The notes under the pieces were generated by a model that saw only the letters and a list, made by a program, of their open reading frames with translations, made no database searches and was not told the DNA's origin. A DNA stretch of 64,000 nt, taken from the IMG/VR virus record IMGVR_UViG_3300028025_000090. One strand, 5' to 3'. Both the position numbers and the translations under genes were made by a program. Positions 2-63,708 of this stretch are shown here, in pieces (the stretch's first letter is position 1; each line of letters opens with the position of its first letter). Source of the stretch: a virus.

Positions 2-1048
2 CACAATACTATCTAGCCTAGTTGGTTTTAAACGTAAAGAAACGACTGGGTAAAAGGTTCCTGCTGTCGCGAGAGCTTTTGGCGCAGTTATTTCCGTGCC
101 GATTGCTTGCTGTAAACCTCTTAATTCATAACCACCTTCGGAAATAACCGTACTACAAACTTGCTTTAATTTACTTGGACTTGAAGTTGCAGCTTTATTT
201 TCAATTTCATATCTAAGCGGTAATGATCCTGTTGTAATATATGTCGAATCAATTAGATTGGCATGGTGAAAGTAATGACAAGGAACGAATTGACCATTGA
301 TAACAAATCCTGTTCTCACGGTACCTAATCCGAGCCATTCGATATCTGCCCATAAAATTTGAGCCTTTGTAATATCGAGAGTAATACCAGATTTTCCTGA
401 TCCGTCTAAGCGATCTACATTCCATTGTGATTGAGGAATACGAGTAGATGAAAGTGAGCCAGATGTAATACTGCGCTCAACCATATATAAAGTAGTGTCA
501 TCCAATTCCAAGTAGATCCCATTATCAGCACCAAAATAACCAACACGTTGTCTCAGATTTGTTTTAGATGGGTTAAAGGTAAATGTATTTAAAATTTGTA
601 AGCTCTTACCAGGTTGATATGCAAACACTTTCGTGGTTTCGCGATACACTTTAGAACCGCTTAAAGAATCAACTTTTAACTCCACAAGACCTTGAGTTTG
701 AATGAATTCCGCAGAAGCAGAGGTTGTCGTGGTTCCACCTGTAAGTGTCGCCCAAAGGCTGTTATCTGTATATCTATGAGACGAGTCGAAAAGAGTTAAT
801 GGACTTGATGTTCTCGTTCTACCGAAAGCATCGCTAGCCATGTTGAAATTACCACTAAAGTTGCTTGTCGTATCATCGATATTCTTCACCAAAACAGCAT
901 ATTTTGGATATTCGACTATTTGAGGGGAACCGAAAGATGGATCTGTCATTGCCGATGTTGCTGGAAATCTAACATCATTTATGATCTCAACAAATTTTCC
1001 GCTTTCGGTATTTGCAGCGTTTGTCCATACTTTAGTATTAATTGGCAT
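2..1048 (-). CDS. Conserved T4-like phage virion structural protein (runs off the window start)
   Basis: Not in the ORF track because it has no stop in the window. I translated its start and end: ATG at 1048, MPINTKVWTNAANTESGKFVEI...DAFGRTRTSSPLTLFDSSHRY, ending ...TFYPVVSLRLKPTRLDSIV at the window edge. TAAATA lies 5 nt upstream. The DAFGR..S.P.TLFDSSHRY motif recurs in aquatic T4-like phages. Confidence 0.7.
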   Translation of the reverse strand, partial: MPINTKVWTNAANTESGKFVEIINDVRFPATSAMTDPSFGSPQIVEYPKYAVLVKNIDDTTSNFSGNFNMASDAFGRTRTSSPLTLFDSSHRYTDNSLWATLTGGTTTTSASAEFIQTQGLVELKVDSLSGSKVYRETTKVFAYQPGKSLQILNTFTFNPSKTNLRQRVGYFGADNGIYLELDDTTLYMVERSITSGSLSSTRIPQSQWNVDRLDGSGKSGITLDITKAQILWADIEWLGLGTVRTGFVINGQFVPCHYFHHANLIDSTYITTGSLPLRYEIENKAATSSPSKLKQVCSTVISEGGYELRGLQQAIGTEITAPKALATAGTFYPVVSLRLKPTRLDSIV

Positions 1049-1084
1049 ATTTATATTTAATCATTTGATGGGGTTAATATCGTA

Positions 1085-1112
1085 TTGACTTTTGCATTTC
1101 ATGGTTTATCAT
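1085..1112 (+). promoter_or_regulatory. Sigma70-type promoter of DNA polymerase
   Basis: TTGACT(1085-1090)-N16-TATCAT(1107-1112), then 6 nt to ATG 1119. Confidence 0.6.
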
Positions 1113-1118
1113 TTTTTT

Positions 1119-3644: not shown

Positions 3645-3662
3645 TATCTATTAAATAATAAT

Positions 3663-4028
3663 ATGCAATTTACGATTTTATTTGAAAAACTTTTAAACGA
3701 ACTTGTTGATACTCTTTTTCCAACCTTCGTGACAAAAAGAGCAGAAGGAGCGAAAAAAATAGAAGAATCCGCAAGGAAAAAAGGTTCTTTTGCTATCTTA
3801 ACTGCTTACCACTTTGCTGGTAAGGTGAAACCATATGCTGATGCTTTGCGAAAAGCTAAGAAAGATGATAAAGAATCCCATCTCAAAGCAAAATATAAAG
3901 AAGCTTATGCTAAACTTAAAAATTTGGATTCTCTTTCACAAAAAGAATTTCAAATGATCACAGGAACTCTTGAAGCATATGGTGAAGTCTACATTCAAGC
4001 GAAACATCCAAAAGATTATTCGAAATAA
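3663..4028 (+). CDS. Hypothetical late protein (possible head-internal protein)
   Basis: 121 aa; TAAATA-N5-ATG; N-terminus MQFTILFEKLLNE. Confidence 0.6.
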   Translation: MQFTILFEKLLNELVDTLFPTFVTKRAEGAKKIEESARKKGSFAILTAYHFAGKVKPYADALRKAKKDDKESHLKAKYKEAYAKLKNLDSLSQKEFQMITGTLEAYGEVYIQAKHPKDYSK

Positions 4029-7217: not shown

Positions 7218-8583
7218 ATCCGCGATCTTTAAACTCGCCAATATTGTTTAGGTGGCTATCTTTTTTGACTTGTTCAGAGAAATACCCCATAACACCTGTC
7301 TCTTCTTCCTCGTTCTTCTGTTTGCGAGGTTTTTTTGGTTTTTGTGTTGGGCTTTCTTTTTCTTTGGCGTAAAATGCGTCATCAGAAGCTTTTCTAACAT
7401 CAGAAAAATTATCGGATGTGTCAATCTCTGCCGAACTAAATCCTGCTGCTTTTCTACCAGCAGAGATTTCTTGTTTTTCCAAAGCATCGGAAGATTTTAT
7501 CAATTCTTTCCATTTGAGAACAATTTCAATTTCTGGCTCAGTTATAATACCTTTGCTTGCCACACTGTTTAGAAAATTTGGAGTATAAATGTCGAGAATA
7601 TCTTCAACGGCTTTTCGCTTGTCATCTATCATCTCTTCGGAAACTCCTCTTGTTTCACGCGATTCCAGATCATTTTCATATTCATCCGCAATATATTCGC
7701 TCATTTCTGAAGGAAATTTGTTAATGAAGGCATCATAAAGTTTCTCCTTGGAGACTGGTTTATTGTTCGATAATCTATCTTCCAAAGTTTTGATGATCAT
7801 ACCCAATCCCTTAACATCTACGTTGTAATATTCGACTAATTCTTGATCGTCTCGCAAACCTATCAAAGTTTCAATAAACGTATCCAAAGGTATTAAATCC
7901 TCGGAAATTTTTTTATTACCATCATCAATCACGATTCTTTCTTTGTTTCGTAATGCTTGTATTGTTCCTGAAGGTAGTAAAGTTCTGCTTCTTCTATTTA
8001 TTTTGGTAATAATTGGCCAAACCTCCCCCTTCATGGTTGCAAAATCATTAGCAGACATGGAATATTTTGTTTCGATACGGGTAGCATATCCCTTCGCCCT
8101 GTTTTTAAACTCTAATCTATCTTCGAGTTTCTGTTTATATTCTTCAATATATTCAGGACTCGTTACTTCATTGAAGAATTTTTCAGAAGTCGCGAGGTCA
8201 GGTTTTTTATTCGCTAAGTATGAAACGATCCACTTGGAACGCTTATTACTATCATTTGATCCCGTCCCGATGAAATCGAGATAATCTTCCTGTAATTCGG
8301 GAGATTTTTCCCATAACTTTGCGATGTATTGATTGACACTTGTATATTGAAAAGTTGTTTTGTAAATTTTCTCGTATAATGCTTCCGTCACATAATCGTT
8401 CAATAATTTGACATTTGCTGGAACTTTCCACTTTTCAAATAGTTTTTTTCCTATTTCTGGTCGTATCACATTGACAAAGTTTGCGACCTTTTCATTTTTT
8501 TCTGGTCTTGTTGAAGATGTTTTAGCCATTTCAGACAAAACCTGTACCTTTTCTACCAAATAATCGAATCCGTAATTTCTCAT
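7171..8583 (-). CDS. Hypothetical late protein (possible head-internal protein)
   Basis: 470 aa; TAAGTA-N5-ATG; N-terminus MRNYGFDYLVEKVQVLSEM. Confidence 0.65.
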   Translation of the reverse strand: MRNYGFDYLVEKVQVLSEMAKTSSTRPEKNEKVANFVNVIRPEIGKKLFEKWKVPANVKLLNDYVTEALYEKIYKTTFQYTSVNQYIAKLWEKSPELQEDYLDFIGTGSNDSNKRSKWIVSYLANKKPDLATSEKFFNEVTSPEYIEEYKQKLEDRLEFKNRAKGYATRIETKYSMSANDFATMKGEVWPIITKINRRSRTLLPSGTIQALRNKERIVIDDGNKKISEDLIPLDTFIETLIGLRDDQELVEYYNVDVKGLGMIIKTLEDRLSNNKPVSKEKLYDAFINKFPSEMSEYIADEYENDLESRETRGVSEEMIDDKRKAVEDILDIYTPNFLNSVASKGIITEPEIEIVLKWKELIKSSDALEKQEISAGRKAAGFSSAEIDTSDNFSDVRKASDDAFYAKEKESPTQKPKKPRKQKNEEEETGVMGYFSEQVKKDSHLNNIGEFKDRGFKKPVNYHHWLSLNG

Positions 8584-8591
8584 AATTATAC

Positions 8592-8747
8592 TTAGTAATC
8601 TCTTGTAATTTCTCTGTCGAATTCGGCAGATAATTTCTTCAAAAGTCCTTGTCGTCTGTTTCCATATTCATTTCGATCAAGATATTGTTTGATTAGATCA
8701 CGATCCAACATTTTGGATTTGAGGTCTTTTAAATTTATTTTTACCAT
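8592..8747 (-). CDS. Small hypothetical protein
   Basis: MVKINLKDLKSK...; likely start ATG 8747 within ORF 8592..8780. Confidence 0.4.
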   Translation of the reverse strand: MVKINLKDLKSKMLDRDLIKQYLDRNEYGNRRQGLLKKLSAEFDREITRDY

Positions 8748-14081: not shown

Positions 14082-14528
14082 ATGAACAACATTCCCGAAG
14101 AAATTGAAGCAATGGCATTCCTGATTGGACAATCCAATCAGATTGATCAAATGATGGTTGACCGACCATCGACACTTATCACATCAGCGCAGACTTTGAA
14201 AAAAGGTTTGAATGATTACATTCAAACGCAAAGACAACAAGCTCCTCAACCTGTTCAATATCAACAACCCCCTCAACCTCCAGTCGTTAATTTACCACCC
14301 CAACAATTACCTCAAGTTCCCCAGTATGCACCAATGCCACAAAAAGTGGATGACGGGCAATTGGAATTGAATTTGGAGCCGACTAAAGTTGAGGAAATTA
14401 TTATTTTGTTGAAAGAAATCTCTAATAAGTTGACAAAGCAGAATAGTCTGCTAGAAAAGACGTATGCAAATCAATCTAAACAGAAAACCGTTTCAGAACC
14501 TGTTGTTAAGCTTGTCGCAAATAAGTGA
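14082..14528 (+). CDS. Hypothetical protein with Q/P-rich linker
   Basis: 148 aa; QQAPQPVQYQQPPQPP. Confidence 0.6.
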   Translation: MNNIPEEIEAMAFLIGQSNQIDQMMVDRPSTLITSAQTLKKGLNDYIQTQRQQAPQPVQYQQPPQPPVVNLPPQQLPQVPQYAPMPQKVDDGQLELNLEPTKVEEIIILLKEISNKLTKQNSLLEKTYANQSKQKTVSEPVVKLVANK

Positions 14529-15171
14529 CACATGTGTTCTGGAGATGAAAGATGATGGCATACATGGTATTTCCTCTAGCGAGGATAACTCCATGTATGC
14601 TCATGCATATCTAAGAGGTGATTTTGAAGAAAAGAATCTAAATCTACCTTCTCTGAAAAAGCTTTCCAAAGCATTAGACATGGTATCATCTGATACCGTG
14701 AAGCTAAAGTTGAATGGAAACCATTTGGAGTATAAAGATAAGCAAATCAAATTCAAATACCATCTTCATGAAGAAGGTGTTATCACTAGACCGAAATTAT
14801 CTCTGGAAAAGATTCGTAATTTTGAATATAACATCGAATTTGAGTTGGACTTCGATTTCCTTTCCAATATTCTCCAAAAATCTTCCATCACAAACACCAA
14901 AAAATTATATATTTTCACAGAAGATGGTAATTTGGTGTGGAAAGTAGGAGACGAGACTGTTCCAAACAGCGATACTCTGAGTATTGTAGGGGATGAAGTT
15001 GAATTCGAACTCAATCCTTTCATTCTAAAGATTGACAATTTGAAATTATTGTCTAAAGTATCGAAGACTGGTAATGTATTCAAAATCAATTCCAAGTTGG
15101 GAGTTGGTTGTATCGTCACGAAGAGTGGTGATTTTGAAATGGAATATATTTTTAGCTCATTGAAGAATTAA
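14464..15171 (+). CDS. gp45: DNA polymerase sliding clamp (gp45/PCNA-like)
   Basis: 235 aa two-domain clamp pattern (LLSLSQISDTCVLEMKDDG...KFKYHL...YIFSSL) in the replication cluster. Confidence 0.7.
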   Translation: MQINLNRKPFQNLLLSLSQISDTCVLEMKDDGIHGISSSEDNSMYAHAYLRGDFEEKNLNLPSLKKLSKALDMVSSDTVKLKLNGNHLEYKDKQIKFKYHLHEEGVITRPKLSLEKIRNFEYNIEFELDFDFLSNILQKSSITNTKKLYIFTEDGNLVWKVGDETVPNSDTLSIVGDEVEFELNPFILKIDNLKLLSKVSKTGNVFKINSKLGVGCIVTKSGDFEMEYIFSSLKN

Positions 15172-16524: not shown

Positions 16525-16538
16525 CAGTAAATATTTCT

Positions 16539-16865: not shown

Positions 16866-16873
16866 ATAATATT

Positions 16874-47277: not shown

Positions 47278-47326
47278 ATAAAAGGATTTATTTGGAAAAA
47301 GTTATATCTCTAGACTAAATAATAAT

Positions 47327-48097: not shown

Positions 48098-48105
48098 ATA
48101 CTATT

Positions 48106-48675
48106 ATGCCAACAAGTATTGAAAATTTTATGTCACAGGCGATGCAAAAACAATTTGCTCGCGACTTCCTTTTCCGTGTTAAACAGATCGACATCACAGG
48201 ACTTTCCTTGGATGGTGAGACTGATTTGGTTTACGCTAAAACAGCTACTTTTCCTGGAAGAGATATTGAAAACAAACAGGTGAATTATTCAGGTCAAACT
48301 TTCAATATTCCTGGAAAATCTAGCTATCCAGGTTCTGAAGGTTGGTCTGTAGAATTTTATCTTGATCAAAATTTGGATATCAGAGAGAAACTCGAAAGAG
48401 CAAGTAGAGTCCTATTCGACAACGAAACCACCACTGGTAATATTTGTATGCCAGGATACGAATCCGTAATTACTTTGGATGTTCTTCAAATCCCTTGTCA
48501 AAGAGGTCCTAATGTAACATCGGGTAGTGAAATGCAAGTTGGTAGAACAATCCAATTGATTGGTGCTTCTCTTCGAAATATCAGCGAAGTTTCTTATGAA
48601 ATTGCTGATGGAACTGGTGAAATTAAAACATTCACTGCGACTTTCGCGTATCATTTCTATCGTGGACTGGTCTAA
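48106..48675 (+). CDS. gp19: Tail tube protein
   Basis: KQFARDFLFRV, ATFPGR, YSGQTFNIPG, WSVEFYLD, FTATFAYHFY; start at ATG 48106 (TAAATA-N5). Confidence 0.88.
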   Translation: MPTSIENFMSQAMQKQFARDFLFRVKQIDITGLSLDGETDLVYAKTATFPGRDIENKQVNYSGQTFNIPGKSSYPGSEGWSVEFYLDQNLDIREKLERASRVLFDNETTTGNICMPGYESVITLDVLQIPCQRGPNVTSGSEMQVGRTIQLIGASLRNISEVSYEIADGTGEIKTFTATFAYHFYRGLV

Positions 48676-48691
48676 GTGATTAAGTAATTAC

Positions 48692-49300
48692 ATGTCTAAC
48701 CCACAGATTGAAGATTTTCTCCAAGCGTTCTCAGGGGACGCTAGATACTGTCTTTCTATACCAGTATTATGGTCAGTATCCATTGATGGAGTATCGAATG
48801 ATTCCATAAACCAGTATTTACAGTTAGCACAGGAAAAATGGAGAGCTAAGATCACTCCTAATTCCATGACAAAAAATGGTAATATTTTACCAGCACAAGC
48901 AGTGACAATTCCAACTGAGGGAGCTAATTTTGGTTCTAGTTCAATTGGTGAAAATAGTGGTGGATTTTTGCCAGGATATGTTTTGAACAGTAGACAAGAT
49001 TTCTTGTCTCGTAGCTTTTCTATAAACTTTTTAGAGACTAGAAAAGATTTGGAACATGAATATTTCAGACCTTGGATTATCGCTACATCTATAAAAGGAT
49101 TAATCGAAGCAGGTGCAAATCTCAAAGCTGATATCACAGTGAAACAATACACAAACGGTGGTGAATTGAGAAAAGGTTATATCTTTAGAAAAGCATTTCC
49201 CACTGCTGTTGAAGGATTTACAATGGATTATCAAAATACAGAATTTCCTGTGAAATCCGTGACATTTGCTTGTCAGAATTACGAACAGATTGCTGTGTAA
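48692..49300 (+). CDS. Tail-tube-fold baseplate protein (gp54-like)
   Basis: AQAVTIP, INFLET, FRPW, YIFRKAFPTAV, VTFAC; follows gp19. Confidence 0.6.
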   Translation: MSNPQIEDFLQAFSGDARYCLSIPVLWSVSIDGVSNDSINQYLQLAQEKWRAKITPNSMTKNGNILPAQAVTIPTEGANFGSSSIGENSGGFLPGYVLNSRQDFLSRSFSINFLETRKDLEHEYFRPWIIATSIKGLIEAGANLKADITVKQYTNGGELRKGYIFRKAFPTAVEGFTMDYQNTEFPVKSVTFACQNYEQIAV

Positions 49301-50001: not shown

Positions 50002-50033
50002 TTGACAAATGATTTGTCACAGTAAATACGGGC

Positions 50034-50765
50034 ATGGACAATAATGTTAAGAACTTCTTGGACAGTATCCAAGATTTAAAAAATACAAAATTCAAAGTGA
50101 ATCGTATTACTACTGGTGAAAAAGTTGATTGCGTTCCTTTGTCATTCAAACAACAAAAGAATATTATTTCTACCTTCACAGAAGGAACTGTTGGTGTTTT
50201 GAAATTCCAAAAGATGTTGAATGATATTATCATTGAAAACACTGGAAATAATGATTGGTTGGTTGTTGATAAGGTTCCTGTTATTTTAAAATTGAGAAAA
50301 GAAAGTCTAGGTGACATCGTTAAAACATCAGAAGGAGAAATTGATATCAGAGACATCAAAATTTTGGATAAAATTGATATTCCACTCCTACATATTGTCG
50401 AAGGAGCAGTGACAGTAGAACTGGACACACCTACATTATCTGAAGAAAATAAAGTCATCAATTATGCAATTGATATTCTTAAAAAAGATGGAGAAAAAGA
50501 TGTCGGAAAGAATCTGACCAATCTATTCACCTTTGAAATTGTAAAATTCGTCAAGACTGTGAAATTTGGCGAAAAATCTTTGAGTTTCTCCGAATTATCT
50601 ATCAAAGATAGAATTTCAGTAATTGAGAACTTACCACTGTCTATCAATCAAGATATTGCTAAATTTATTGATAAAATTAAAGAAATTGATAGAACCCAGA
50701 CCAAAGTGGTTATCGATGGGGAAGAAAAATCATTTGATATTGACATAACATTTTTTGATAATTAA
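50034..50765 (+). CDS. Baseplate hub assembly protein (gp26-like)
   Basis: PLSFKQQKNII resembles the gp26 RPF.VKEEK region; TAAATA-N5-ATG. Confidence 0.5.
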   Translation: MDNNVKNFLDSIQDLKNTKFKVNRITTGEKVDCVPLSFKQQKNIISTFTEGTVGVLKFQKMLNDIIIENTGNNDWLVVDKVPVILKLRKESLGDIVKTSEGEIDIRDIKILDKIDIPLLHIVEGAVTVELDTPTLSEENKVINYAIDILKKDGEKDVGKNLTNLFTFEIVKFVKTVKFGEKSLSFSELSIKDRISVIENLPLSINQDIAKFIDKIKEIDRTQTKVVIDGEEKSFDIDITFFDN

Positions 50766-51911: not shown

Positions 51912-52644
51912 AAAAGGAATTGTTCTTTCGGGGGGGAAGGCGACTCGCTTATACCCCATTACAAAAACGACATCCAAACAATTGTTGGGTATTTACAAAA
52001 AACCAGTGATTGCCTATCCCCTTCAAACACTGAAGGAAATGGGTTATCAAGATATCCTTATTATCAATGCTGATGAGGAACAACAAAAACAATTTAAGAT
52101 TTTGTTGGGAGATGGTGGTAAATTCGGTCTGAATCTGACTTATGCAATTCAGGACAAACCTCGTGGTCTTGTCGATGCTTTTATTGTTGGAGAAGAATTT
52201 ATTAAAGATGCAGATGAAATCTGTTTGATCCTTGGTGATAATATTATCATCGGCAACTCACCGATTTATCCCCAATCGAATACGATCTACACTTACAAAG
52301 TAAAAGACCCATCAGCATATGGCGTTGTAGAAACTGATGAAAATGGTTTGATCAAAAAAATTGTGGAGAAACCTAAAGAATTTATTTCAGAAGATGCTGT
52401 GATCGGTCTTTATGTATTTTCCAATGAAGTGGTTGAGATGGCTAAAAAGGTCACACCATCAGCAAGAGGAGAATTGGAAATCGTTGATCTCATTCGCTTG
52501 ATGAATGAGAAAGAAGGTGTCAATGTCGAGAAACTGGATGGTTTTTGGTTCGATATTGGTGACTTCGATTCCCTATTGGATTGTGCAAATCTTGTTCGAA
52601 CTATTGACAAACGCTCAAACCATGCTATTGGTATTGATGTATGA
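51904..52644 (+). CDS. rmlA: Glucose-1-phosphate thymidylyltransferase (short form)
   Basis: GIVLSGGKATRLYPIT, SKQLL.IY.KP, YAIQDKPRGL, LILGDN, AYGVV, VEKP, SARGELEI, WFDIG. Confidence 0.92.
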   Translation: MTKKGIVLSGGKATRLYPITKTTSKQLLGIYKKPVIAYPLQTLKEMGYQDILIINADEEQQKQFKILLGDGGKFGLNLTYAIQDKPRGLVDAFIVGEEFIKDADEICLILGDNIIIGNSPIYPQSNTIYTYKVKDPSAYGVVETDENGLIKKIVEKPKEFISEDAVIGLYVFSNEVVEMAKKVTPSARGELEIVDLIRLMNEKEGVNVEKLDGFWFDIGDFDSLLDCANLVRTIDKRSNHAIGIDV

Positions 52645-53564
52645 GCGACTTATGGGTAGAACAATATAGACCACAGACTTTGGATGATCTGATGGTTGAT
52701 GATAAAACAAGACAAATAATCCAAAACTTTGGTAGAGATATCCCGAATTTGTTATTGACTGGTGTTGCTGGAAGCGGTAAGACCAGTCTTGCCAAAATCA
52801 TCACTAAAGATATTTTGAATTGTGATTATCTTTATATTAATGCCTCTGATGAAAACGGCGTGGACACGATTCGAGAGAAAGTTATTGGGTTTGCCCAAAC
52901 AATGAGTTTTGATGGTGGATTGAAAATTGTAATTCTGGATGAAGCAGATGGTATCTCCAAACAGGCACAGGGGATTCTACGTAACGTAATGGAGTCCTAT
53001 TCATCCACCACACGATTCATCCTCACAGGTAATTACAAACACCGTATCATCCCTGCTCTACAGTCTCGTTGTCAGAGTCTCACTCTTCATACATCCCTGA
53101 AAGATGTCACTCGTCGTTGTGTGGATATTCTTAGAAAAGAGAATGTGGAGATTCCTGATGATCAGAAGAAGAATCTGGTAAATCTGATCAGAAGTCATTT
53201 TCCTGATATCAGGAAATGTATCAATGAGTTGGAGAAGTTCTCCAAGTCTGGTGTTCTCACTATTGAATCGAAGAAGGATACTAATGAGACATTAGAATTA
53301 ATCTATAACAATCTCAAGTCAGGTAAGACACTGGAAACCAGAAAGTTTCTCATTGAGAACGAAGAATTATTTGATTCTGATCACGAAGCTCTTTTGAAAG
53401 ATTTGTTGAATCATTTTTATGATCTACAAATTGATGACACTATAAAAAAACAAGCTATCCTAATAATTGCGGATAGCTTGTTTAAAATGATTTCTGTTAC
53501 TGACAGGGAGATATGTTGTATCGCTTGTCTATTACAGTTGGAAGAATTATTCCCCCCAAAATAA
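52641..53564 (+). CDS. gp44: Clamp loader ATPase subunit (gp44/RFC-like)
   Basis: LWVEQYRPQTLDD, GVAGSGKTS, INASDENGVDTIR, LDEAD, LQSRC, FPDIRKCINEL. Confidence 0.93.
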   Translation: MSDLWVEQYRPQTLDDLMVDDKTRQIIQNFGRDIPNLLLTGVAGSGKTSLAKIITKDILNCDYLYINASDENGVDTIREKVIGFAQTMSFDGGLKIVILDEADGISKQAQGILRNVMESYSSTTRFILTGNYKHRIIPALQSRCQSLTLHTSLKDVTRRCVDILRKENVEIPDDQKKNLVNLIRSHFPDIRKCINELEKFSKSGVLTIESKKDTNETLELIYNNLKSGKTLETRKFLIENEELFDSDHEALLKDLLNHFYDLQIDDTIKKQAILIIADSLFKMISVTDREICCIACLLQLEELFPPK

Positions 53565-54308
53565 CTTATCGTAATTCTCTCTTACGAAATTCTTATCGTA
53601 GGTTTTTTGAATATTGCGAGATTTACCTTTTTTCGGATTTGGTGTTAATTCAGATTGTTTGCTTTTCCTAGCAGCGGCAGCTTGTTTCGATCTATCTGAA
53701 CGTTGTTGTCTTTGTGCTGCGTAGCTACTAACACCATCATCTTCTGGTTCTACTTGATCTTCAACTGTATTATCTTGAGGAAGTGGAGGTGGTGTTGCTT
53801 GAGATTGTTGTGGTAGAGGTGGTGGAGTAGCTTGTGTCGTTTGAATGTTTTGTTTCAATCCTTCCAAAGCATCTTGAATTTCCGAAGCAAATTTGATTTC
53901 TCCAATATTCAATCCTAATTTCTGGACATCGTTATTTAGATCAGCTACAAAATTATTAATTCTTTTTGTGATATTTTTTTTCAAATAATCAATTTTGGCA
54001 TTATTACCCATGTTTCCACCTGCTTGAACATTTTGTTGTCCTGCTTGTTGCATTCCTTGTCCAGCCTGAGTCAATTTGTTTTGAGATGGATCGATTTGAC
54101 CACCCATTGCTTGAACTCCTTTAGCTGCTAAATTACCAGCTTTTTGAACAACATTACCAGCCATTTGTTGTGCGCCACCTTTTAATTGCTGTCCCGCACC
54201 TTTAACTGCTCCAAGTGCTTGCGCACCACGGGCTTTGAAGCGATCCAAGAACCCTTCTTCTAAGAGTTCTTCCAAATTAAGTTGATCTTCATTATTATAT
54301 CTAGCCAT
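53547..54308 (-). CDS. Gln/Gly-rich late protein (possible internal protein)
   Basis: 253 aa; TATAAATA-N5-ATG; LEELLEEG; duplicated QATPPPLPQ. Confidence 0.6.
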   Translation of the reverse strand: MARYNNEDQLNLEELLEEGFLDRFKARGAQALGAVKGAGQQLKGGAQQMAGNVVQKAGNLAAKGVQAMGGQIDPSQNKLTQAGQGMQQAGQQNVQAGGNMGNNAKIDYLKKNITKRINNFVADLNNDVQKLGLNIGEIKFASEIQDALEGLKQNIQTTQATPPPLPQQSQATPPPLPQDNTVEDQVEPEDDGVSSYAAQRQQRSDRSKQAAAARKSKQSELTPNPKKGKSRNIQKTYDKNFVRENYDKLFWGE

Positions 54309-54330
54309 ATTATTATTTATATTATTTGAA

Positions 54331-54582: not shown

Positions 54583-56018
54583 TATTTTTTACTATTCCCC
54601 CAATTTTTCGCTCCTACTTTTCTACATTTAACCAATGCTCCAGAGGCATATGCACTAGGCCATACATCATATCGGGATTTTACTTTTTTATAACAAGCAT
54701 CTTGTTCATCTTGTTCCTCCCCACAATCCTCATTATCTTCATCTTCATCTTCGTCATCACCGAAGACTTTTTTACCTATATTTTCTTCCCAATCTTCCAA
54801 TTTACCATTTTTATTTCTATCGGCTTTTTTGAAATCGAATTTCTCTCTCAATGTTTCCTCATAGATCATAGCTAATTCTTTGGTGAAATCCCAAGACTTG
54901 GATTCACCGACTACTGGTTGTGTTGGTGATGCTTGTGGTGCTTCTGGATCATAATTAAGTTTCCAGTCAAGATATTCTTGTGCTGTATTAAACACTTGGT
55001 TTGATCCATCTGGCTTTAATGCCACCACAGTCCCAGTAGAACTCACCCCAACTTCCGTAGGAGTCCCACCGCCCCTCACTCGTCTAGTCATCATTGTTAC
55101 TGGATTTTGTGGTGTTGCGCTTTGAACCCACGAATCATTTGGGTTGTTGCTTGTTACCACCTTTCCAACAACATATCCATCATTGGTTAGAGTTTCTATA
55201 GCTTGAGATTGTGCCTGTTGTGGTTTAGCCTGTTGTGCTTGTGCCTGTTGTGCTTGTGCCTGTTGTGCTTGTGCCTGTTGTGGTTTAGCCTGTTGTGCTT
55301 GTGCCTGTTGTGGTTGAATAAATTCCAATACTTCGGGGTCTTGGTAAGCTCCCTGTGTTTGTTTTGCCCACGTTTGTAGGTTTGTCGTTGCAATTTTCAA
55401 TGCACTAGCATTTCCAGTTTTTTGAGCATATCTGAGTGCAGTAATCAATCTATATTTTTCCGCATCATCAACACCTTCAGTGTATAGACTTTCATAAATC
55501 ATACCCAATTCATTCACAGATTCCCAAGACTTGGATTCTCCTGCCAATTTAAGGTTTGTTGGAGTATTCTTACCATTACCTTTATCAGTTACATTGGTAA
55601 TAAGATTTGGATCAACTTCCAATTTCATAGGTTTGATAATGACTACATCTTTTTTCTTGAATTTATCAGGAACTAGAACACCATCGCTAATATCAACCAT
55701 ATCAGTGGTTACAGTAACTCTACCATAAGTTCTTCCACCACCGTGATCAGCGGCGATAGTCAACACCACACAACCTGCTGGTTTGAATTGATTACCCGTA
55801 GAAAATCCCGATTGTTTATCACCTACTTGAACAACTTTAATATTCAATCCACATTTATCCAATTCATCAACTTCTTTTTGAAGAGTAGATGGCATATGCT
55901 TGTAGGTTTCCGTGTTCTTATAACCAGTGCGAAATTTCACACAGTCGCCTGGTAAAAACCCCCCCGCCTCTCCACGTTGAATCACAGTTTCATAAATTGC
56001 GTCAAATTTTTTTCCCAT
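54582..56018 (-). CDS. Multi-segment late protein (putative internal polyprotein)
   Basis: Repeated GESKSW....EL.MIYE linkers; QAQQA repeats; C-terminal DACYKKVKSRYDVWPSAYASGALVKCRKVGAKNWG module seen in cyanophage-like T4 phages. Confidence 0.65.
   Translation of the reverse strand: MGKKFDAIYETVIQRGEAGGFLPGDCVKFRTGYKNTETYKHMPSTLQKEVDELDKCGLNIKVVQVGDKQSGFSTGNQFKPAGCVVLTIAADHGGGRTYGRVTVTTDMVDISDGVLVPDKFKKKDVVIIKPMKLEVDPNLITNVTDKGNGKNTPTNLKLAGESKSWESVNELGMIYESLYTEGVDDAEKYRLITALRYAQKTGNASALKIATTNLQTWAKQTQGAYQDPEVLEFIQPQQAQAQQAKPQQAQAQQAQAQQAQAQQAKPQQAQSQAIETLTNDGYVVGKVVTSNNPNDSWVQSATPQNPVTMMTRRVRGGGTPTEVGVSSTGTVVALKPDGSNQVFNTAQEYLDWKLNYDPEAPQASPTQPVVGESKSWDFTKELAMIYEETLREKFDFKKADRNKNGKLEDWEENIGKKVFGDDEDEDEDNEDCGEEQDEQDACYKKVKSRYDVWPSAYASGALVKCRKVGAKNWGNSKK
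55210..55315. repeat. 15-bp tandem repeat, about 7 units, encoding (QAQQA/QAKPQ)n
   Basis: TGTGCCTGTTGTGCT and TTTAGCCTGTTGTGCT-type units visible in tandem. Confidence 0.85.
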
Positions 56019-56026
56019 AATATTAT

Positions 56027-56191
56027 TTAGTCGTTTGTAAGCGATTTATTCATCTCTTCCAATTTTTTCAATCTATTATTTTTCCTAGCTTGAGCCATTT
56101 TTATTTTTTGTTCATCTGATATTCCTCTTTTTTTGGCAAAAATTCTCATTTTTTCTTTAGATTCGTCGGTATGTCTTCTACCCGTCGAAGA
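56027..56191 (-). pseudogene. Remnant of a NUMOD3-bearing homing endonuclease C-terminus
   Basis: Manual translation SSTGRRHTDESKEKMRIFAKKRGISDEQKIKMAQARK...TND*, preceded in frame by TGA with no start or nuclease domain. Confidence 0.6.
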
Positions 56192-56241
56192 TCATAGAGT
56201 ATAGTAGAAGACAAATCTTAGTCTTTTTACTAAATAATAAT

Positions 56242-57768
56242 ATGAATTTCGACGATTTATATACATTGGCATTGGAAGCAAAGGGAACTAAGCCAGGAGA
56301 AAGATTTTACAGAGCATCGGAATCCGAAGGACCGTCTGGTATTTCTTCTTCACCTATTGGAAAAAGTAATTACAATCCAGAAATATATAAACCAGAAAGA
56401 AAAGATCCTGCTGATAAAGGTATGAGTGATCAAGTATCTATCATTAAATTACTTGGAAAAGCATTTCAATTGTTGAAAAACGATGAAGTGTTTGCGGATC
56501 AAATGAGAGGCATCATGAACGGTTTTAAGAAAAATCGTAAACAAATTTCAGCATATCAAGAAAGTGTTATTAAATACAAACCAAAAACAATTGATAATCT
56601 TTGGGGTAGAATTAACCGATTGATCACAATTGTGAATGATCCCAAAAAACGTCAAGACCCAAGTGTGGCTGAGTTTGAGAAAGAATTAAAAGACTTAAAA
56701 GCTCAAAAAGATGAAGAACAAGGAGAATTGGATAATGTCTTTTCACAAATTGAAAACGTATCATTGGAAAATGAAGAGTTGAGTGATAGTTATTTGGAAC
56801 AAATGCTTTATGTTATCAGAGATACTGCGAAGCGTCTTTACAAAAAACAATCAGATGCACTTATGATCGATGGTCAAGAACCTCAATCTCGAATCATCCC
56901 TCTTCATGAATTAGATTATGGAATGCTCGAAAAAGAAGTTGAAAAAAATTCTCAAGCGCAAATGCAATTATTGGAAATGTTGTTATCATCTGATGATTCA
57001 AATCCTTTGAAATTGTTTTTAAAATTACAACAAGAAAGGTATGAGGATTCTAAGCAAAATTTCTTCAATACCAGCAGAGGTGATAACTATAGCATTGCAA
57101 TTGAGCAATTATATAAAAATTTACCACTGTTTTCTTTAGTAAATTATTTCTCCCATATTATTCTTAAATCACCTGTTATTACACTGAATGTGAAACAGAA
57201 AAAACGTGCAGATGTTCTCACCAAAGGAGATAGCATGATGGATCGTATGAGTAAAATTAAAAACGAGAGAGAATGGGAAGAACTTCGACCTGACTTGATC
57301 ACATATCTTAAAAAACAAAAAATTGATAAAATTAAAAAAGATATGCTTATCAACATTGCAAAAGGACCGTTCCAAGCAATAAGAGGTAGAGCTAATGCTG
57401 CTATTAAAATAATTTCCTCATTAAAAATGGAAAACATTACCGAATCTTTCGATGAATTGGCATCGAGATATGCATCTTCTTTTGATTTTGATATGAACGA
57501 TTTCATGATCGATTTGCAAGAAGTTCATTCATTGCTTGAAAGCAAATGCACTGGTCCGACAAAAAAAGCATCTAGTGATAGAAAAGGTAAAAAATGGACT
57601 AAATGTGCTAGACAACCAGATGGTTCATATAAAAGAATTCATTGGGGGCAAGCTGGTGTAAGAGTTGGTAAAAACAATCCGAAGCGTAGGAAATCCTTCC
57701 GTGCAAGGCACAAATGCTCTTCAGCGAAACCAGGTTCTCCCAAAGCAGCGGCTTGCGGCGATTGGTAA
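56242..57768 (+). CDS. Late protein with C-terminal basic Cys-rich module
   Basis: TAAATA-N5-ATG; MNFDDLYTLALEA; C-terminal KCTGP..KKWTKC..IHWGQ..NPKRRKSFRARHKC..ACGDW. Confidence 0.65.
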   Translation: MNFDDLYTLALEAKGTKPGERFYRASESEGPSGISSSPIGKSNYNPEIYKPERKDPADKGMSDQVSIIKLLGKAFQLLKNDEVFADQMRGIMNGFKKNRKQISAYQESVIKYKPKTIDNLWGRINRLITIVNDPKKRQDPSVAEFEKELKDLKAQKDEEQGELDNVFSQIENVSLENEELSDSYLEQMLYVIRDTAKRLYKKQSDALMIDGQEPQSRIIPLHELDYGMLEKEVEKNSQAQMQLLEMLLSSDDSNPLKLFLKLQQERYEDSKQNFFNTSRGDNYSIAIEQLYKNLPLFSLVNYFSHIILKSPVITLNVKQKKRADVLTKGDSMMDRMSKIKNEREWEELRPDLITYLKKQKIDKIKKDMLINIAKGPFQAIRGRANAAIKIISSLKMENITESFDELASRYASSFDFDMNDFMIDLQEVHSLLESKCTGPTKKASSDRKGKKWTKCARQPDGSYKRIHWGQAGVRVGKNNPKRRKSFRARHKCSSAKPGSPKAAACGDW

Positions 57769-57788
57769 TCATATAGTTAAATAATTAG

Positions 57789-59750
57789 GTGAGTGTTAAT
57801 ATCGTTCCCTTATTAGAAGAAGTACTTGGTCTGTTACAAACGATCAATGAGACAAGGGGTGTACCTGAAGGGGAGAATATATCTGACAAGAATGTTCTCC
57901 AGACGGGAAATTCCAATCCAAATAAAAAAGTCAAAAGCTCTCTTTCTAATGAAGAACAGAAGAAGACTAAAGAGGTCGCATCTATTTTCGCAAAGACATT
58001 TTTTGAAATGCAGCGAAAATTTCAGGGTGATAAAGCACTTAAAACATCTGTTCAAAAAATCATACCAAATGCTAAGAAATTAGAAACTGGTGGTCGTAAA
58101 AGCGATTTGGAAATGCCCAAGAAAGGGTCAATGCTTGGTGGTATTTTGATGCTATTAGGTGGTGCGGGTGCTTTGATAATGGGTCTTTTAACTGACGGTC
58201 CGTTTAAAGGTGCTTTGAAAATACTATCTAAAATTGGTATATCAGGTGGTATCAAGATGCTCATGACAGCAGCTAAAGGAATGTTAGGAACATTCTCTAA
58301 ATTTGTTACAGCACCTTTCAAATTCGCTGGTAAATTGATGGGTAAAGGATTCATGGGTAGAATCGTTGGTGCTTTGAAACCATTAGCTAAAATACTTAAA
58401 AAAATTCCCTTGATTGGCACTATCATATCCATAGGTTTTGCTATTTCTCGCTTCATGGATGGCGATACAGTGGGGGGTGTTATCGACGTTCTCAGTGCTT
58501 TGACTGGATTATTAAATTTAATTCCAGGTGGCTCGATTATTGCCATACCACTTTCCATAGGTTTGGATATTTTGAATGCTTGGTTGGATGCCAAGACAGC
58601 AGGAGCAAAAGATAAAAATTCTGCTAAATTGGACATTTTAGGAGACATGGCAAAAAGCATTGGCAACTGGATTTGGGACAATGCTTTGTGGTTGCCAGTG
58701 ATTGGTGGCTTCAAGCGTTGGGGTATGGCTTACGATGCTTTCAAAGGTGGTAATATTATGGAAGGTCTGAAACAATTTGGACTTGGTATACTATCATTTG
58801 CAGGTATGGGACCGATCATTATGGGTATTGAAACTCTGATGGGCTTCTTCGGTGATAAAGAAGAGAAAAAAGATTTAAAACCAAACACTTCTTGGTTCGG
58901 TAGAATTAAAGAATGGGTTAAGAATAAATTGAAAAAATTACCTTCTTTCCTGAAAAAACCTCTACAATGGTTTGGAATCATAGATGACGACTCATCGGAA
59001 TCAGAACCAAACATGGAATCATCGAAAAAAATCGATTATGAGCAAAAAATAGTTGGATGGTTATCTGGTCTTTGGGGAAAAATAACACCTATGTTAGAAA
59101 ACATTGGTAAATGGTTCTCTGGATTATGGGAAAAAATATCTACTTGGGCATCTGGATTGTGGGAAAAAATGACACCATTTTTTGAAGTTATTGCTAAATG
59201 GTTCTCTGATATTTGGGGAAAGGTAAAAGAATTTTTAGGCAGTGATTTCATGAATGGTATTATTGATAGTGTTAAAAATATTGCAAGTTCAGTTATGAGT
59301 ATTGTTGATACCATATTCCGCACAATAAAATCTATCGTAGAAGCTGCTAAAGCTACGATTGGTCGTTTCGGCAAGATGTTTGGAGCTGGTGATAACAAAG
59401 AAGTAGAAGAAAATGCCAAAAAAATGGGATGGAATTCTGTCGAAGAGTATGAAAAATCTGGTTGGAAAGAAAACCCTGATAAAAAGAAAGTGGGAGTTAT
59501 TGATGAGAAACGTAAAAAACACGTAGACGATTTAGTATTGATTGGTAGAGAGCAAATAGCAATTCTTTCTGATATCAGAAATATTGGTATGCAAACATAT
59601 AAAGTTCTTGCTGGTAGTAGTGGTGGAGGCTCTGCGAGTCCAATAATTATTCCCAATTCTGGTGGTGGTTCTAAAAGTAAACCATCCTCTCAAGTATCTT
59701 TAAATACAAGTAGAGGTGATTATGGTAGTTCTCCATATGCATTCGCGTAA
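57789..59750 (+). CDS. Tail tape measure protein (gp29-like)
   Basis: 653 aa; G/A/L-rich amphipathic core (KKIPLIGTII); periodic W-x-S-G-L-W repeats; GTG start 5 nt after TAAATA; upstream of baseplate hub genes. Confidence 0.72.
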   Translation: MSVNIVPLLEEVLGLLQTINETRGVPEGENISDKNVLQTGNSNPNKKVKSSLSNEEQKKTKEVASIFAKTFFEMQRKFQGDKALKTSVQKIIPNAKKLETGGRKSDLEMPKKGSMLGGILMLLGGAGALIMGLLTDGPFKGALKILSKIGISGGIKMLMTAAKGMLGTFSKFVTAPFKFAGKLMGKGFMGRIVGALKPLAKILKKIPLIGTIISIGFAISRFMDGDTVGGVIDVLSALTGLLNLIPGGSIIAIPLSIGLDILNAWLDAKTAGAKDKNSAKLDILGDMAKSIGNWIWDNALWLPVIGGFKRWGMAYDAFKGGNIMEGLKQFGLGILSFAGMGPIIMGIETLMGFFGDKEEKKDLKPNTSWFGRIKEWVKNKLKKLPSFLKKPLQWFGIIDDDSSESEPNMESSKKIDYEQKIVGWLSGLWGKITPMLENIGKWFSGLWEKISTWASGLWEKMTPFFEVIAKWFSDIWGKVKEFLGSDFMNGIIDSVKNIASSVMSIVDTIFRTIKSIVEAAKATIGRFGKMFGAGDNKEVEENAKKMGWNSVEEYEKSGWKENPDKKKVGVIDEKRKKHVDDLVLIGREQIAILSDIRNIGMQTYKVLAGSSGGGSASPIIIPNSGGGSKSKPSSQVSLNTSRGDYGSSPYAFA

Positions 59751-59763
59751 TTAAATAATATCA

Positions 59764-60612
59764 ATGGCTACGATCAATGTACATAAAGAATACGACTGGA
59801 CTTCTGTTCCCAGAAATAGTCCATATCGAAATGTTGCGCCTTATGTGGTATTGAGATCTTATAAAATAAAATCGAGTGCCGCTTTGAATAGGTTACAGAG
59901 TTATATAAATTTGGCTACAGCTAAAAGTGCTGATGAATTTTATGAAGGATTGTATCAAAACGTTGAAAAGGCTGATGATTTTTTTATACCATACTTTGGT
60001 GATAGTGTTAGATCGTTCTCAAATGAATTTGGTGATACTTTTCAAAACGGAGCCTTAGCGCAAGTTGACAGCTTACTACAAACTGGTTCTAATGAGATAT
60101 TAGCACCTTTGCAAGAACTCAATATAGGGGGCAATGTTAAACAATTTTTTCAAAATGCAAAAGATGCTATAACAAAAGGTTCAACAGCGACTGCTATGGA
60201 GAAAATTAAAGGACTTGGTAAAGGAATGTCTACCGCACCTGGCTCTTACATTGAAACACCTAAATTATATCAATATGCACAGAACGATGGTGCATTGGAA
60301 ATAACATTCCCATTATTCAACACGATAAATGGAGATGCTGTTCAGAAAAATTATGATTTGATTGATAAATTAACAAGAATTAATAGACCAAAAAGGCTAA
60401 CATCCATTACTATGGAACCTCCTCATATTTACCAAGTAAAATTAAAGGGTTTGAGATACATGAGATGGGCTTATTGTAGCAATTTTTCTGTTAGTATGAT
60501 CGGTGCGAGAAGACTCGTAAATGGTGCTATCACACCTGATGGCTATCAAATTACAATGTCACTCACTTCATTGACAACCGAAGTTAGCAACTTCATGGAC
60601 AAAGTTAAATGA
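59764..60612 (+). CDS. Baseplate tail-tube cap (gp48-like)
   Basis: 282 aa; ITFPLFNT, PPHIYQV, AYCSNFSVS; position between tape measure and gp53. Confidence 0.5.
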   Translation: MATINVHKEYDWTSVPRNSPYRNVAPYVVLRSYKIKSSAALNRLQSYINLATAKSADEFYEGLYQNVEKADDFFIPYFGDSVRSFSNEFGDTFQNGALAQVDSLLQTGSNEILAPLQELNIGGNVKQFFQNAKDAITKGSTATAMEKIKGLGKGMSTAPGSYIETPKLYQYAQNDGALEITFPLFNTINGDAVQKNYDLIDKLTRINRPKRLTSITMEPPHIYQVKLKGLRYMRWAYCSNFSVSMIGARRLVNGAITPDGYQITMSLTSLTTEVSNFMDKVK

Positions 60613-61015: not shown

Positions 61016-62325
61016 TGGCTGAAGTATGTAAGATAAATGATGTAGAATTTGAATACGAATACACGTTTAAAAATTCTGACGGAGATGAAAATAAATATGC
61101 TAGTTCTGCTGTCAAAGGTTTAACTTTGGTAGATAGTATTTTCAATCCTTTTTTAAGGGGAACGATTGCTGTCGCAAACCCTTATGATTTATTCGAAGAG
61201 AAATATCTTTTAAGAGGTGATGGAAGAGATGAAGTTAAAATTTTCTTAAAACCCAAAGATGAGGAAGAAAAAATAGAAGAAGAATTTATCTTATTACAAG
61301 AAGATAACAGTGGAGATGTTGAAGTTCGTTCGGAAAATATTAAAAAATTTAAGATAATCCATAAAGATATGTTACCGTTTATGGACACCATTCCATACAA
61401 CAAATCGTTCAGTGGTAAAATAGGTGATATCTTGAAAGACATTTTTATTGAATTATTGGGAGAAGATAAAATCGATAAAGAAAATTGGGAAAGCGGAGAT
61501 TTTGATTTTTCTTACATACCACCCATGTCTTTCAGATACATTGATTTGGTCTATCATCTACTAAAATATTTTTATGGTAAAGATGGAGAACTTTATACCA
61601 AAGCACTCATAATGAAAAATAAAAAAATTGGGAAATATCAAATGATGTATCTCACCAAGATTTTTTCAGAAAATAAAAAAAATACGACAGATGCTTTTAC
61701 TACTGCTGATTTGTCAGATAAAAGCGTTGCTGAAAATGAAAACAACCCACCACCTGATGCAAAAGTTAGTAAATTTTCCAGTGGTTTGAAAAATTTCGCA
61801 TACAATACACCTCTGTATGAATGGAATAATGATTTCTTTATCAATTCAGTTGTTCATGGGTATGACAAATTTTTAGGTGTCCAAAAAATGAAAATTTTAA
61901 AATTGGAAGATATTGAGAAAAAATGGAAGACCAAATTTGTTGATGTTTTCAAAGCAATTGGTGGTAGTCCCAAACCATTTGTCGTGAGAAATAAAACCAC
62001 GAAACAAAAATTTAGACATTATAGAACGCCATATGAAGTTGAAGATACTGTGAAAATGGTGGAAGCTGAAATGTGTAATTTATTAACATTTTATAATTTG
62101 AATTGTATTTTCAGTAACGTAGGATTCACTGGAAGAGAAGCAGGTAAATTTTTGGATATTGTTAAAATTGGAGAAGTGAAACAAAAAGGTGATACGAAAA
62201 TGTATGGTAGGTGGTTTGTAACAGAAGTGCGCCATATTTTTTCGAGTGATACCTATACTAATGAATTCAAATGCTGTAAGACCTACGTTGGTAGTAGTAG
62301 CAAAATAAAAAATGACGTTGAATGA
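61015..62325 (+). CDS. Baseplate hub protein (gp27-like)
   Basis: 436 aa; DSIFNPFLRGTIAV; C-terminal AGKFLDI...GRWFVTEVRHIF. Confidence 0.55.
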   Translation: MAEVCKINDVEFEYEYTFKNSDGDENKYASSAVKGLTLVDSIFNPFLRGTIAVANPYDLFEEKYLLRGDGRDEVKIFLKPKDEEEKIEEEFILLQEDNSGDVEVRSENIKKFKIIHKDMLPFMDTIPYNKSFSGKIGDILKDIFIELLGEDKIDKENWESGDFDFSYIPPMSFRYIDLVYHLLKYFYGKDGELYTKALIMKNKKIGKYQMMYLTKIFSENKKNTTDAFTTADLSDKSVAENENNPPPDAKVSKFSSGLKNFAYNTPLYEWNNDFFINSVVHGYDKFLGVQKMKILKLEDIEKKWKTKFVDVFKAIGGSPKPFVVRNKTTKQKFRHYRTPYEVEDTVKMVEAEMCNLLTFYNLNCIFSNVGFTGREAGKFLDIVKIGEVKQKGDTKMYGRWFVTEVRHIFSSDTYTNEFKCCKTYVGSSSKIKNDVE

Positions 62326-63233
62326 GAAATAAAATTGAAATACTCCGTAGCATTCTATTCACTAAAGAAGATTTGGTGAATTATAAAAATATTGATGACC
62401 AATTTTCCAAAGTGGAAATTGAGTTCATGATAGAATTTAAAAAGATTTACGAATTGGGACTCAACCAATTGGAAAAATTTATTAATAAATTGGATGAAGA
62501 AGGAAAAGATTTGGAACCATGGGACATTGCCTATTACGTCAAGCAATTATCGAATGGTCCGTTATCATCTTATGCTAAAGAATTGGCAAAGGATAAAAAA
62601 TATTTTACCGCAATTCCTGATATACTTGGAAATGTTGGCAATAAAGAAATAACTAGACATAACACCACCTTGTTCGAAGATGGTGATTACCCATTGGAAA
62701 TACCAGTGGACATTTACAATAAGTCTCCAAAATTCATACAGAACATGATAGTATCTGCTAATAAAGAAGTAGAGAAAATGTTTCGTTCTTCTTTGAACGC
62801 TAGTGTGGTGAATGACAACACCTTACCAATTGTTGATAAAGCACCGCAGCAAAGATATTCACTGGAGAAAACAGGAGAATGGCAACAAAAATCTCATGGC
62901 ACAATCAATGTCAAGGACTCTTACTATCGTGTGAAGATGTCAGACATCAGAAGTCAAATTTTCGATAAGGTTAAAGAAGTTATTGGAGAAGAGCATTTCC
63001 GAATCTTTAGAGATAAAAAAGATTACTCCCCATTCGATTCAGAAAAGAATAATGCAACATCTTCAAATTATGTATTTGAGAAAGAATTGAAAGAAGGAGA
63101 CAAGGATGAAATCTTTGAAGAAGATATCTTCGGTGATGTTTTTGATAAGAGAGACACTGTTCTCAAAATACAGAAACCAGACAAGAACGAAGAATACAAA
63201 CTCAATACTGTCGATGGACAGTTGGGTAATTAA
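62322..63233 (+). CDS. Hypothetical protein
   Basis: 303 aa; ATGA-coupled to the hub gene. Confidence 0.6.
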   Translation: MRNKIEILRSILFTKEDLVNYKNIDDQFSKVEIEFMIEFKKIYELGLNQLEKFINKLDEEGKDLEPWDIAYYVKQLSNGPLSSYAKELAKDKKYFTAIPDILGNVGNKEITRHNTTLFEDGDYPLEIPVDIYNKSPKFIQNMIVSANKEVEKMFRSSLNASVVNDNTLPIVDKAPQQRYSLEKTGEWQQKSHGTINVKDSYYRVKMSDIRSQIFDKVKEVIGEEHFRIFRDKKDYSPFDSEKNNATSSNYVFEKELKEGDKDEIFEEDIFGDVFDKRDTVLKIQKPDKNEEYKLNTVDGQLGN

Positions 63234-63694
63234 ACATCCACTACTGGTGATTCTTCTTTTTGATTCAACAATTTGATGATATCGTTTCTAGTGAAAGTTA
63301 ATTTTGGAGTATTACTCTCCTCTTCATCTCGAATGATTTTTGCTTGAATATTCATTTGAGTGATTTCTTTCTGTGCTTTGATTTTATCCTCCGATATTTT
63401 TAATTTGGAAAGAGCATCAATCGCAGATGTGGTAGCTTTCACCAATTCTGATACAGACTCAATCAACTTGGAATCTGCACCAGCAAGAACTTCCAATTTA
63501 AGATTCTCAACCATTTCCAAAGAATGATTCACGACTTTACCAGCATTGGTAATAACAAATTCTTCCAAATCTTCTTTCTTGAGATCTGGTTTATTTTTTG
63601 GTAATTGATTAACAATTTTTGATTGATTTTTGATTTGTGAAATAATATCATCCACTTCTGCATTCAAAAAATCATCATCTTCATCGTGATCCAT
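63230..63694 (-). CDS. Probable terminase small subunit (gp16-like)
   Basis: Helical ELVKATTSAIDALSKL and terminal TFTRNDIIKLL resemble the gp16 layout; start reassigned to ATG 63694 (TAAATA-N5). Confidence 0.5.
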   Translation of the reverse strand: MDHDEDDDFLNAEVDDIISQIKNQSKIVNQLPKNKPDLKKEDLEEFVITNAGKVVNHSLEMVENLKLEVLAGADSKLIESVSELVKATTSAIDALSKLKISEDKIKAQKEITQMNIQAKIIRDEEESNTPKLTFTRNDIIKLLNQKEESPVVDV

Positions 63695-63708
63695 ATTGAT
63701 ATTTACTC

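Follow-up and report, generated by a model that had tools for sequence, protein, structure and literature searches.

Late boxes of the T4 type five nucleotides before start codons in an uncultured T4-like phage: a likely case of leaderless late messages

The 64-kb stretch of DNA analysed here, taken from the IMG/VR virus record IMGVR_UViG_3300028025_000090 and called the window throughout, comes from a distant and uncultured T4-like myophage in which the hexamer TAAATA, or its variant TAAGTA, ends exactly five nucleotides before the start codon of many genes (a spacing written N5). From their sequence and position we take these boxes to be T4-type late promoters, probably gp55-dependent, of the form R-Y-TAAATA without a −35 element. 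We consider it likely that they are fused to the start codons: transcription probably begins on the first base of the start codon, as homology with the geometry of T4 promoters suggests, so that promoter-proximal late mRNAs would be leaderless. The new element would be the fusion of a T4-type late promoter to the start codon in a clade that lacks Shine–Dalgarno (SD) sites; T4 late transcription and leaderless translation are each textbook knowledge and have not been described together, and full-text literature searches found no published description of a late box fused to a start codon.

Position and make-up of the late boxes

We counted every TAARTA on both strands together with any ATG, GTG or TTG that follows it at a spacing of 0 to 20 nucleotides (nt) and opens at least 60 amino acids (aa). 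N5 occurs 25 times in the window, where each other spacing occurs 0–3 times, and 55 times in the whole genome of a relative used for comparison (IMGVR_UViG_3300007735_000926, hereafter G001), where other spacings occur at most 8 times. The 23 N5 sites listed in the original prediction (13 on the plus and 10 on the minus strand) are all present as described, including TAAGTA at 8583 and 48692 and the three GTG starts (29564, 36970 and 57789) at which the spacing holds, and so are its two N6 sites (43838 and 59764). Sites beyond those listed have spacings of N6 (32589), N7 (36474) and N8 (18932). Two of the 25 N5 sites are internal to genes: 39802, and 26943, which is probably spurious and is the sole TTG among box-gene starts that are otherwise ATG or GTG. 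The preference for internal starts over those of the open reading frame (ORF) track agrees, at 40473 and 63694, with public gene calls for the same genome (119 and 154 aa).

With default gene starts, 21 of the 71 window genes carry a box at N5. When the 40 nt upstream of each gene were shuffled 300 times with mononucleotide composition preserved, 0.25 such genes arose on average and never more than 2; the comparison with shuffled sequence that had been proposed as a check thus gives an N5 enrichment of about 80-fold after AT correction, and in G001 the shuffled mean was 0.96 against 46 observed. When the 15 permutations of the hexamer letters were counted, a peak arose only for TAAATA and for sub-strings of the same extended motif. 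A GC content of 34.6% and 87 copies of TAAATA in the window could invite the view that the boxes are a compositional accident of an AT-rich genome combined with a biased choice of start codons, but the shuffles refute it, neither other spacings nor permuted hexamers give a peak, T4 at the same GC content has 4 TAAATA sites at N5 without an N5 peak, and the sites are conserved in relatives, which leaves an accident practically untenable.

Table 1. Late boxes (from box to start codon) and reference genes in the window.
Feature	Coordinates	Strand	Remark
Late box TAAATA, N5, ATG; virion structural protein gene (2..1048)	1046..1061	-	
Late box, N5, ATG; 121-aa gene	3650..3665	+	3′ of DNA polymerase
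TAAGTA box, N5, ATG; 470-aa gene	8581..8596	-	
Late box, N5, ATG; 108-aa gene	16526..16541	+	
Late box, N5, ATG; 103-aa gene	16861..16876	+	Box TAA is upstream stop codon, gap 8
Late box, N5, ATG; 137-aa gene	18893..18908	-	36-bp divergent intergenic region
Late box, N8, ATG; 117-aa gene	18916..18934	+	Divergent partner of 18895 gene
Late box, N5, ATG; tail-fibre-like protein	24902..24917	-	
Late box, N5, ATG; tail-fibre-like protein	25559..25574	-	
Late box, N5, GTG; 737-aa gene	29562..29577	-	
Late box, N6, ATG; 843-aa gene	32587..32603	-	
Late box, N7, ATG; 601-aa gene	36472..36489	-	
Late box, N5, GTG; gp25-like baseplate wedge	36968..36983	-	31-bp intergenic region shared with 37002 box
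Late box, N5, ATG; 395-aa repeat-containing protein	36989..37004	+	
Late box, N5, ATG; 121-aa gene	39000..39015	+	
In-frame internal box, N5, ATG; within gene 39382-40401	39789..39804	+	Kept in 9 relatives
Terminator hairpin, then directly late box, N5, ATG; 119-aa gene	40429..40475	+	
Late box, N6, ATG; 201-aa gene	43824..43840	+	N5 in two relatives
Late box, N5, ATG; tail sheath gene	44468..44483	+	
Late box, N5, ATG; homing endonuclease gene	47314..47329	+	Inserted before tube gene
Late box, N5, ATG; tail tube gene 1	48093..48108	+	
TAAGTA box, N5, ATG; tail tube paralog	48679..48694	+	
Late box, N5, ATG; 243-aa gene	50021..50036	+	Spacing kept, spacer letters vary in relatives
Late box, N5, ATG; 253-aa gene	54306..54321	-	
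Late box, N5, ATG; 478-aa gene	56016..56031	-	
Late box, N5, ATG; 508-aa gene	56229..56244	+	
Late box, N5, GTG; tape measure gene	57776..57791	+	
Late box, N6, ATG; 282-aa gene	59750..59766	+	
Late box, N5, ATG; 154-aa gene	63692..63707	-	Start agrees with public gene calls
Family-B DNA polymerase	1092-3644		Replication gene
gp45-like sliding clamp	14464..15171	+	phrog_223, E 6.5e-12; clamp required in T4-type late transcription
Large terminase TerL	41626-43398		Packaging gene
Tail sheath gene	44481-47219		Virion gene
gp44-like clamp loader	52641..53564	+	PF21328 Gp44_lid, AAA
Tape measure gene	57789-59750		Virion gene

An alignment of the 25 window sites and the 55 of G001 at their start codons gives the logo R(−13) Y(−12) T A A A T A(−6), followed by a-T-a-a-T and the ATG or GTG; information upstream of −14 is near zero and there is no −35 element. 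Among the 25 window sites, 24 have a pyrimidine at −1 and 24 have A or G at +1, which fits the usual preference of RNA polymerase for a pyrimidine at −1 and a purine at +1 of its start sites. The TAA of the box doubles as the stop codon of the upstream gene (gap 8) in 5 window genes and 11 genes of G001.

At orthologous sites in seven relatives with 40–100% N-terminal identity, box and spacing are kept where the upstream flanks have diverged until they cannot be aligned. At 50034 the spacer letters vary among relatives (CGGGC, CACTC, CCTGC) with the spacing kept, and one relative has gained a codon behind the ATG of its sheath gene, again with box and spacing kept. The 31-bp spacer between the divergent genes 36970 and 37002 consists of two back-to-back boxes and nothing else, leaving no room for other promoters, and before genes 40473 and 47327 the box stands directly 3′ of a terminator hairpin. 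The hairpin at 40429-40455 has an 11-bp stem with T-runs on both sides, as in a bidirectional terminator, and overlaps the GTG start that the ORF track places at 40440. At the 36-bp divergent promoter junction 18895/18932, some strains carry an extra inserted gene of 110 aa (L035, L037, L039-L041).

A T4-like late system and a second promoter class

The T4 late promoter, TATAAATA, occupies positions −13 to −6 from the transcription start (PMC1524935), in line with the position on which the original prediction had relied and equal to that of our boxes when counted from the start codon; in phage Aeh1 the variant CTAAATA begins at −12 (PMC1524935). A box at −13 to −6 puts the A or G of the start codon exactly at the T4 transcription-start position. 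The gp55 sigma factor, which was to be looked for elsewhere in the genome, has a homolog encoded about 6 kb left of the window: the profile phrog_234 finds it in two relatives (E 7.7e-25 in G001 and 1e-25), it aligns to T4 gp55 with 34% identity (E 3e-17), and the contig of the window's own genome (L001) bears a 95% identical partial copy with gp47- and gp46-like genes behind it, an order shared with T4. Boxes head 8 of the 9 annotated virion or packaging genes, the ninth, TerL, being an internal cistron, and none of the 15 annotated replication or sugar-metabolism genes. Besides the genes in Table 1, the replication genes include a UvsX-like recombinase, a DnaB-type helicase, gp32 and a primase, and the virion genes two tail-tube paralogs, a gp25-like baseplate wedge and tail-fibre-like proteins; in PHROG and Pfam scans most box-headed genes stayed without a name.

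Shine–Dalgarno sites, scored as SD-like words within −20 to −4 of the start, are as scarce as originally noted for AGGAG-type sites: such words occur in none of the 22 box genes and in 7 of the 49 other window genes, against a background of 14.5%. Over the window and G001, 7–10% of genes have them (G001, 7%; background 14–15%), and by the same metric 63% do in T4 and 56% in HTVC008M, a cultured myophage of SAR11 Pelagibacter. The expectation that downstream cistrons mostly overlap or abut the gene before them also holds (28 of the 49 non-box genes, mostly with gaps of −4 and −1), an arrangement that fits re-initiation.

G001 has a second class of promoter with a spacing of its own. TAnnnT ends 6 nt before 33 of its gene starts, canonical TTGACA-N17-TAnnnT-N6-ATG promoters are present, and an early box, AAAAACTA-N3-TACAAT, is repeated 85 times; 38 copies have the first start at N6 and 19 have it at N9. 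The normal distance from a sigma-70 −10 hexamer to +1 is 6 nt. N5 for TAAATA and N6 for TAnnnT are therefore each the distance proper to its class, and both would put +1 on the start codon. Two class-specific spacings are not what one would expect of a ribosome-binding signal. Early-type promoters at N6 also mean that the leaderless layout is not late-specific. The 85 copies of the early box, in general form AAA[AC]ACT[AG]-N3-(T/C)AnAAT, lie at about 125–192 kb of G001 (L031-L034) without a TTGACA-type −35, and the N9 examples seen in G001 read ATC ATG. Within the window, the late box of gene 50034 is preceded, at a distance of 15 nt, by a TTGACA hexamer (50000-50036, plus strand) that all relatives keep; from its sequence this region may be a combined host-type and late promoter. 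SD-independent initiation of the Bacteroidia type (TTTG or TAnnTTTG promoters, A-rich leaders) was considered and rejected, the early promoters being TTGACA-N17-TAnnnT or the early box with TACAAT.

The start codon as probable transcription start

In the mechanism that we propose, host RNA polymerase carrying the gp55-like sigma factor of the phage, probably with help from the gp45 clamp, would read boxes so positioned that transcription begins at the first base of the ATG or GTG. Promoter-proximal late messages (sheath, tube, tape measure, baseplate wedge and tail fibres) would have neither a 5′ leader nor a ribosome-binding site, and we infer that ribosomes binding the 5′-terminal start codon would translate them, the downstream genes of the same operons being reached through stop/start overlap or near-abutment. 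The leaderless late transcriptome originally predicted is thus supported by box geometry, spacing and gp55, except that the layout and the lack of SD are apparently genome-wide in the clade and not specific to late genes. Its claim for even the sheath and tube mRNAs gains support from the box that both genes carry at N5, and does not extend to the many late genes that are internal cistrons without a box of their own. The contrast drawn with T4 stands, T4 leaders being 13–42 nt long.

An alternative accepts the boxes as gp55-type promoters but has the protein made mostly from read-through messages, on which the A/U-rich box region (UAAAUAAUAAU) would act as an SD-independent landing or re-initiation zone; the fixed spacing would then reflect double duty as DNA promoter and RNA initiation context, not leaderless translation alone. 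A same-strand gene does end 4–39 nt before thirteen of the 22 window box genes (in five of these cases the box TAA is its stop codon), few terminators were found, the spacer has its own consensus a-T-a-a-T, and in a phage with no SD anywhere some genes would need SD-independent internal initiation. We nevertheless think this account unlikely: it does not explain why sigma-70-type −10 hexamers stand at N6 and not N5, nor why spacing is kept with G/C-rich spacer letters such as CGGGC at 50034, and there are boxes in front of divergent units and behind terminators (40473, 47327), places that no read-through reaches. Still less probable, in our judgement, is that TAAATA is no promoter at all but an RNA-level, non-SD ribosome-binding motif at fixed distance, comparable to the AT-rich motifs that gene-finding programs report in bacteria poor in SD. 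Such a motif would suit an A/U-rich word in a phage without SD, at a distance of 5 nt that lies within the SD spacing range; yet the word is the T4/Aeh1 late promoter core at its published position in a phage that encodes gp55, it is limited to virion genes and absent from replication genes that likewise lack SD, its six invariant letters go far beyond known A-rich initiation contexts, RYTAAATA is rare on antisense strands (2 of 27), and HTVC008M, with SD at 56% of its genes, has the same N5 box on a subset.

Several observations weigh against the proposed fusion of late promoter and start codon. Placing the start site there presupposes that a gp55 only 34% identical to that of T4 has retained the T4 geometry, and recognition is not identical, since the box has C or T at −12 where the T4 late promoter has an A that gp55 flips into a pocket (PMC7892883). 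The profile for the co-activator gp33 (phrog_254) finds nothing at E<=1 in G001 or in a second relative, G002, although it finds the gp33 of HTVC008M (E 2e-21); gp33 is small and fast-evolving, so its absence is not proven. Mild conservation is also seen within the spacer (consensus aTaaT), a feature that promoter spacing alone would not call for. Boxes often stand behind a same-strand gene without a visible terminator, so that read-through messages would carry the starts internally and initiation there needs something other than a 5′ end, and about 12 uncoupled window genes with neither box nor SD point to the existence of another initiation mode.

Public sequence data gave no 5′ ends at the boxes: the short IMG/VR and Logan contigs of the phage do not end at box starts, and the one short contig that ends 16 nt inside gene 40473 probably does so by chance. 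A metagenome scan for RNA-derived contigs used a conserved 20-mer that lies 45 nt inside the tube gene and brought up three ordinary contigs, all spanning the site, and look-ups for two small late proteins returned metagenome contigs only. A generic scan for sigma-70 promoters and terminators gave counts at shuffle level, with few terminators.

Distribution, mobility and comparison with known systems

A TerL profile search yielded 49 usable T4-like loci of at least 8 kb. In the ten closest (TerL 39–49% identical), 7% of starts are SD-like and 161 kb hold 47 N5 boxes; in the other 39, 42% of starts are SD-like and 537 kb hold 6. The ten form a single clade and so count as one evolutionary event, not ten. 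The N5-box trait is clade-wide and coupled to SD loss, with HTVC008M as the exception. On a broader reading, to which we give equal weight for and against, this is a clade of abundant freshwater T4-like phages without ribosome-binding sites, in which early (N6) and late (N5) promoters would be welded to start codons, every promoter would give a leaderless message and other genes would be reached by re-initiation. If so, the host ribosomes would initiate efficiently on 5′-terminal AUG or GUG.

The unit of promoter plus start appears to be portable, being apparently used by a homing endonuclease gene and by an internal isoform. The endonuclease gene (47327-48097, plus strand; phrog_314, E 8.6e-37) is inserted between the sheath and tube genes, and its late box and opening four codons (ATGGCTGGAACT) are those found at the front of the tube gene in relatives without the insert; the tube gene behind it has a second box, whose TAA is the endonuclease stop codon. 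Inside gene 39382-40401, nine relatives with nucleotide identities as low as 71% retain every letter of an in-frame CTAAATA-N5-ATG, synonymous CTA and AAT codons included; this site may, to judge from the sequence, give a 199-aa leaderless C-terminal isoform.

The window's own genome is about 194 kb: proteins identical to those of the window are found on a 194,364-bp public metagenome contig. G001 is complete with terminal repeats (197,682 bp), 75–86% identical in DNA and 93% identical in TerL, and none of 50,697 cultured-phage records held a nucleotide-level relative. No tRNA genes were found in the window; G001 has 20. Neither an Atlas look-up with a dTDP-glucose dehydratase-like gene (mixed viral and bacterial clusters) nor a genome scan with an NTP-transferase (45–48% matches scattered over unrelated phyla) assigned a host. 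In six loci (L012, L015-L017, L019, L089) the TerL match starts only at residue ~87–90 (window ~41891), which suggests that the terminase gene is split there by an insertion (intron, intein or mobile gene) in several relatives. The 395-aa late protein (37002-38189, plus strand) has internal repeats, visible as many staggered BLAST alignments to 24.8–26.3 kb of G001, and its length varies among strains (395 versus 467 aa).

Were the late messages of this large and environmentally common group of T4-like phages to start at the AUG, the late promoter alone would set both the transcription and the translation start and offer a very simple rule for finding true gene starts; the promoter-to-start rule already corrects several ORF calls in the window. 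Heavily expressed virion proteins would then be made without SD pairing, which would inform on the translation apparatus of the host. In a study of pelagimyophages the prediction of late promoters was unsuccessful (PMC7029224), for which the N5 layout may account.

Among known systems, the middle and late transcripts of the Thermus phage phiYS40 (Sevostyanova et al. 2007) reportedly belong with the leaderless −10-motif systems. Experiments in Deinococcus-Thermus have shown that a −10 motif (TANNNT) a few base pairs before the ORF drives leaderless genes and that it has to stand at the right spacing (PMC12340547). The −10 element there abuts the ORF, which puts the mRNA 5′ end on or beside the start codon, and the TAnnnT-N6 class described here is alike; those bacteria use the host primary sigma factor, whereas the late class of the T4-like myophage described here uses a gp55 box of the T4 type at N5. 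HTVC008M (NC_020484) shares the gp55-type system with the window phage and has TAAATA at N5 before 11–12 starts and at other spacings at most three times, but it has SD-like sites at 56% of its genes, encodes gp33 and the ribosomal protein bS21, and is only 33% identical in TerL; growing on SAR11, it is an immediately usable cultured experimental system. bS21 was considered as a shared translation factor and rejected, being present in HTVC008M and absent from G001 and G002. The cyanophage S-PM2, used for comparison, shows no excess of the box-N5 pattern.

T4 itself has an identical TAAATA core whose position, counted from the presumed +1, also agrees, likewise without a −35 element, and the window phage shares with it a gp55 homolog beside gp47/gp46, the gp45 and gp44 genes and boxes before virion genes. 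The T4 late system comprises the sigma factor gp55, the co-activator gp33 and the clamp gp45 (PMC1524935, PMC7892883), of which gp33 is undetected here. The two differ in the upstream letters of the box, T-A in T4 and R-Y here, and above all in distance: TATAAATA lies 13–42 nt from the start codon in T4, with a mode of 25–28 and none at 5, where the window phage has N5. Aeh1, with C or T at −12 followed by TAAATA, has the same box variant as the window phage; its promoter is described upstream of late genes, and PMC1524935 reports no fusion to the start codon.

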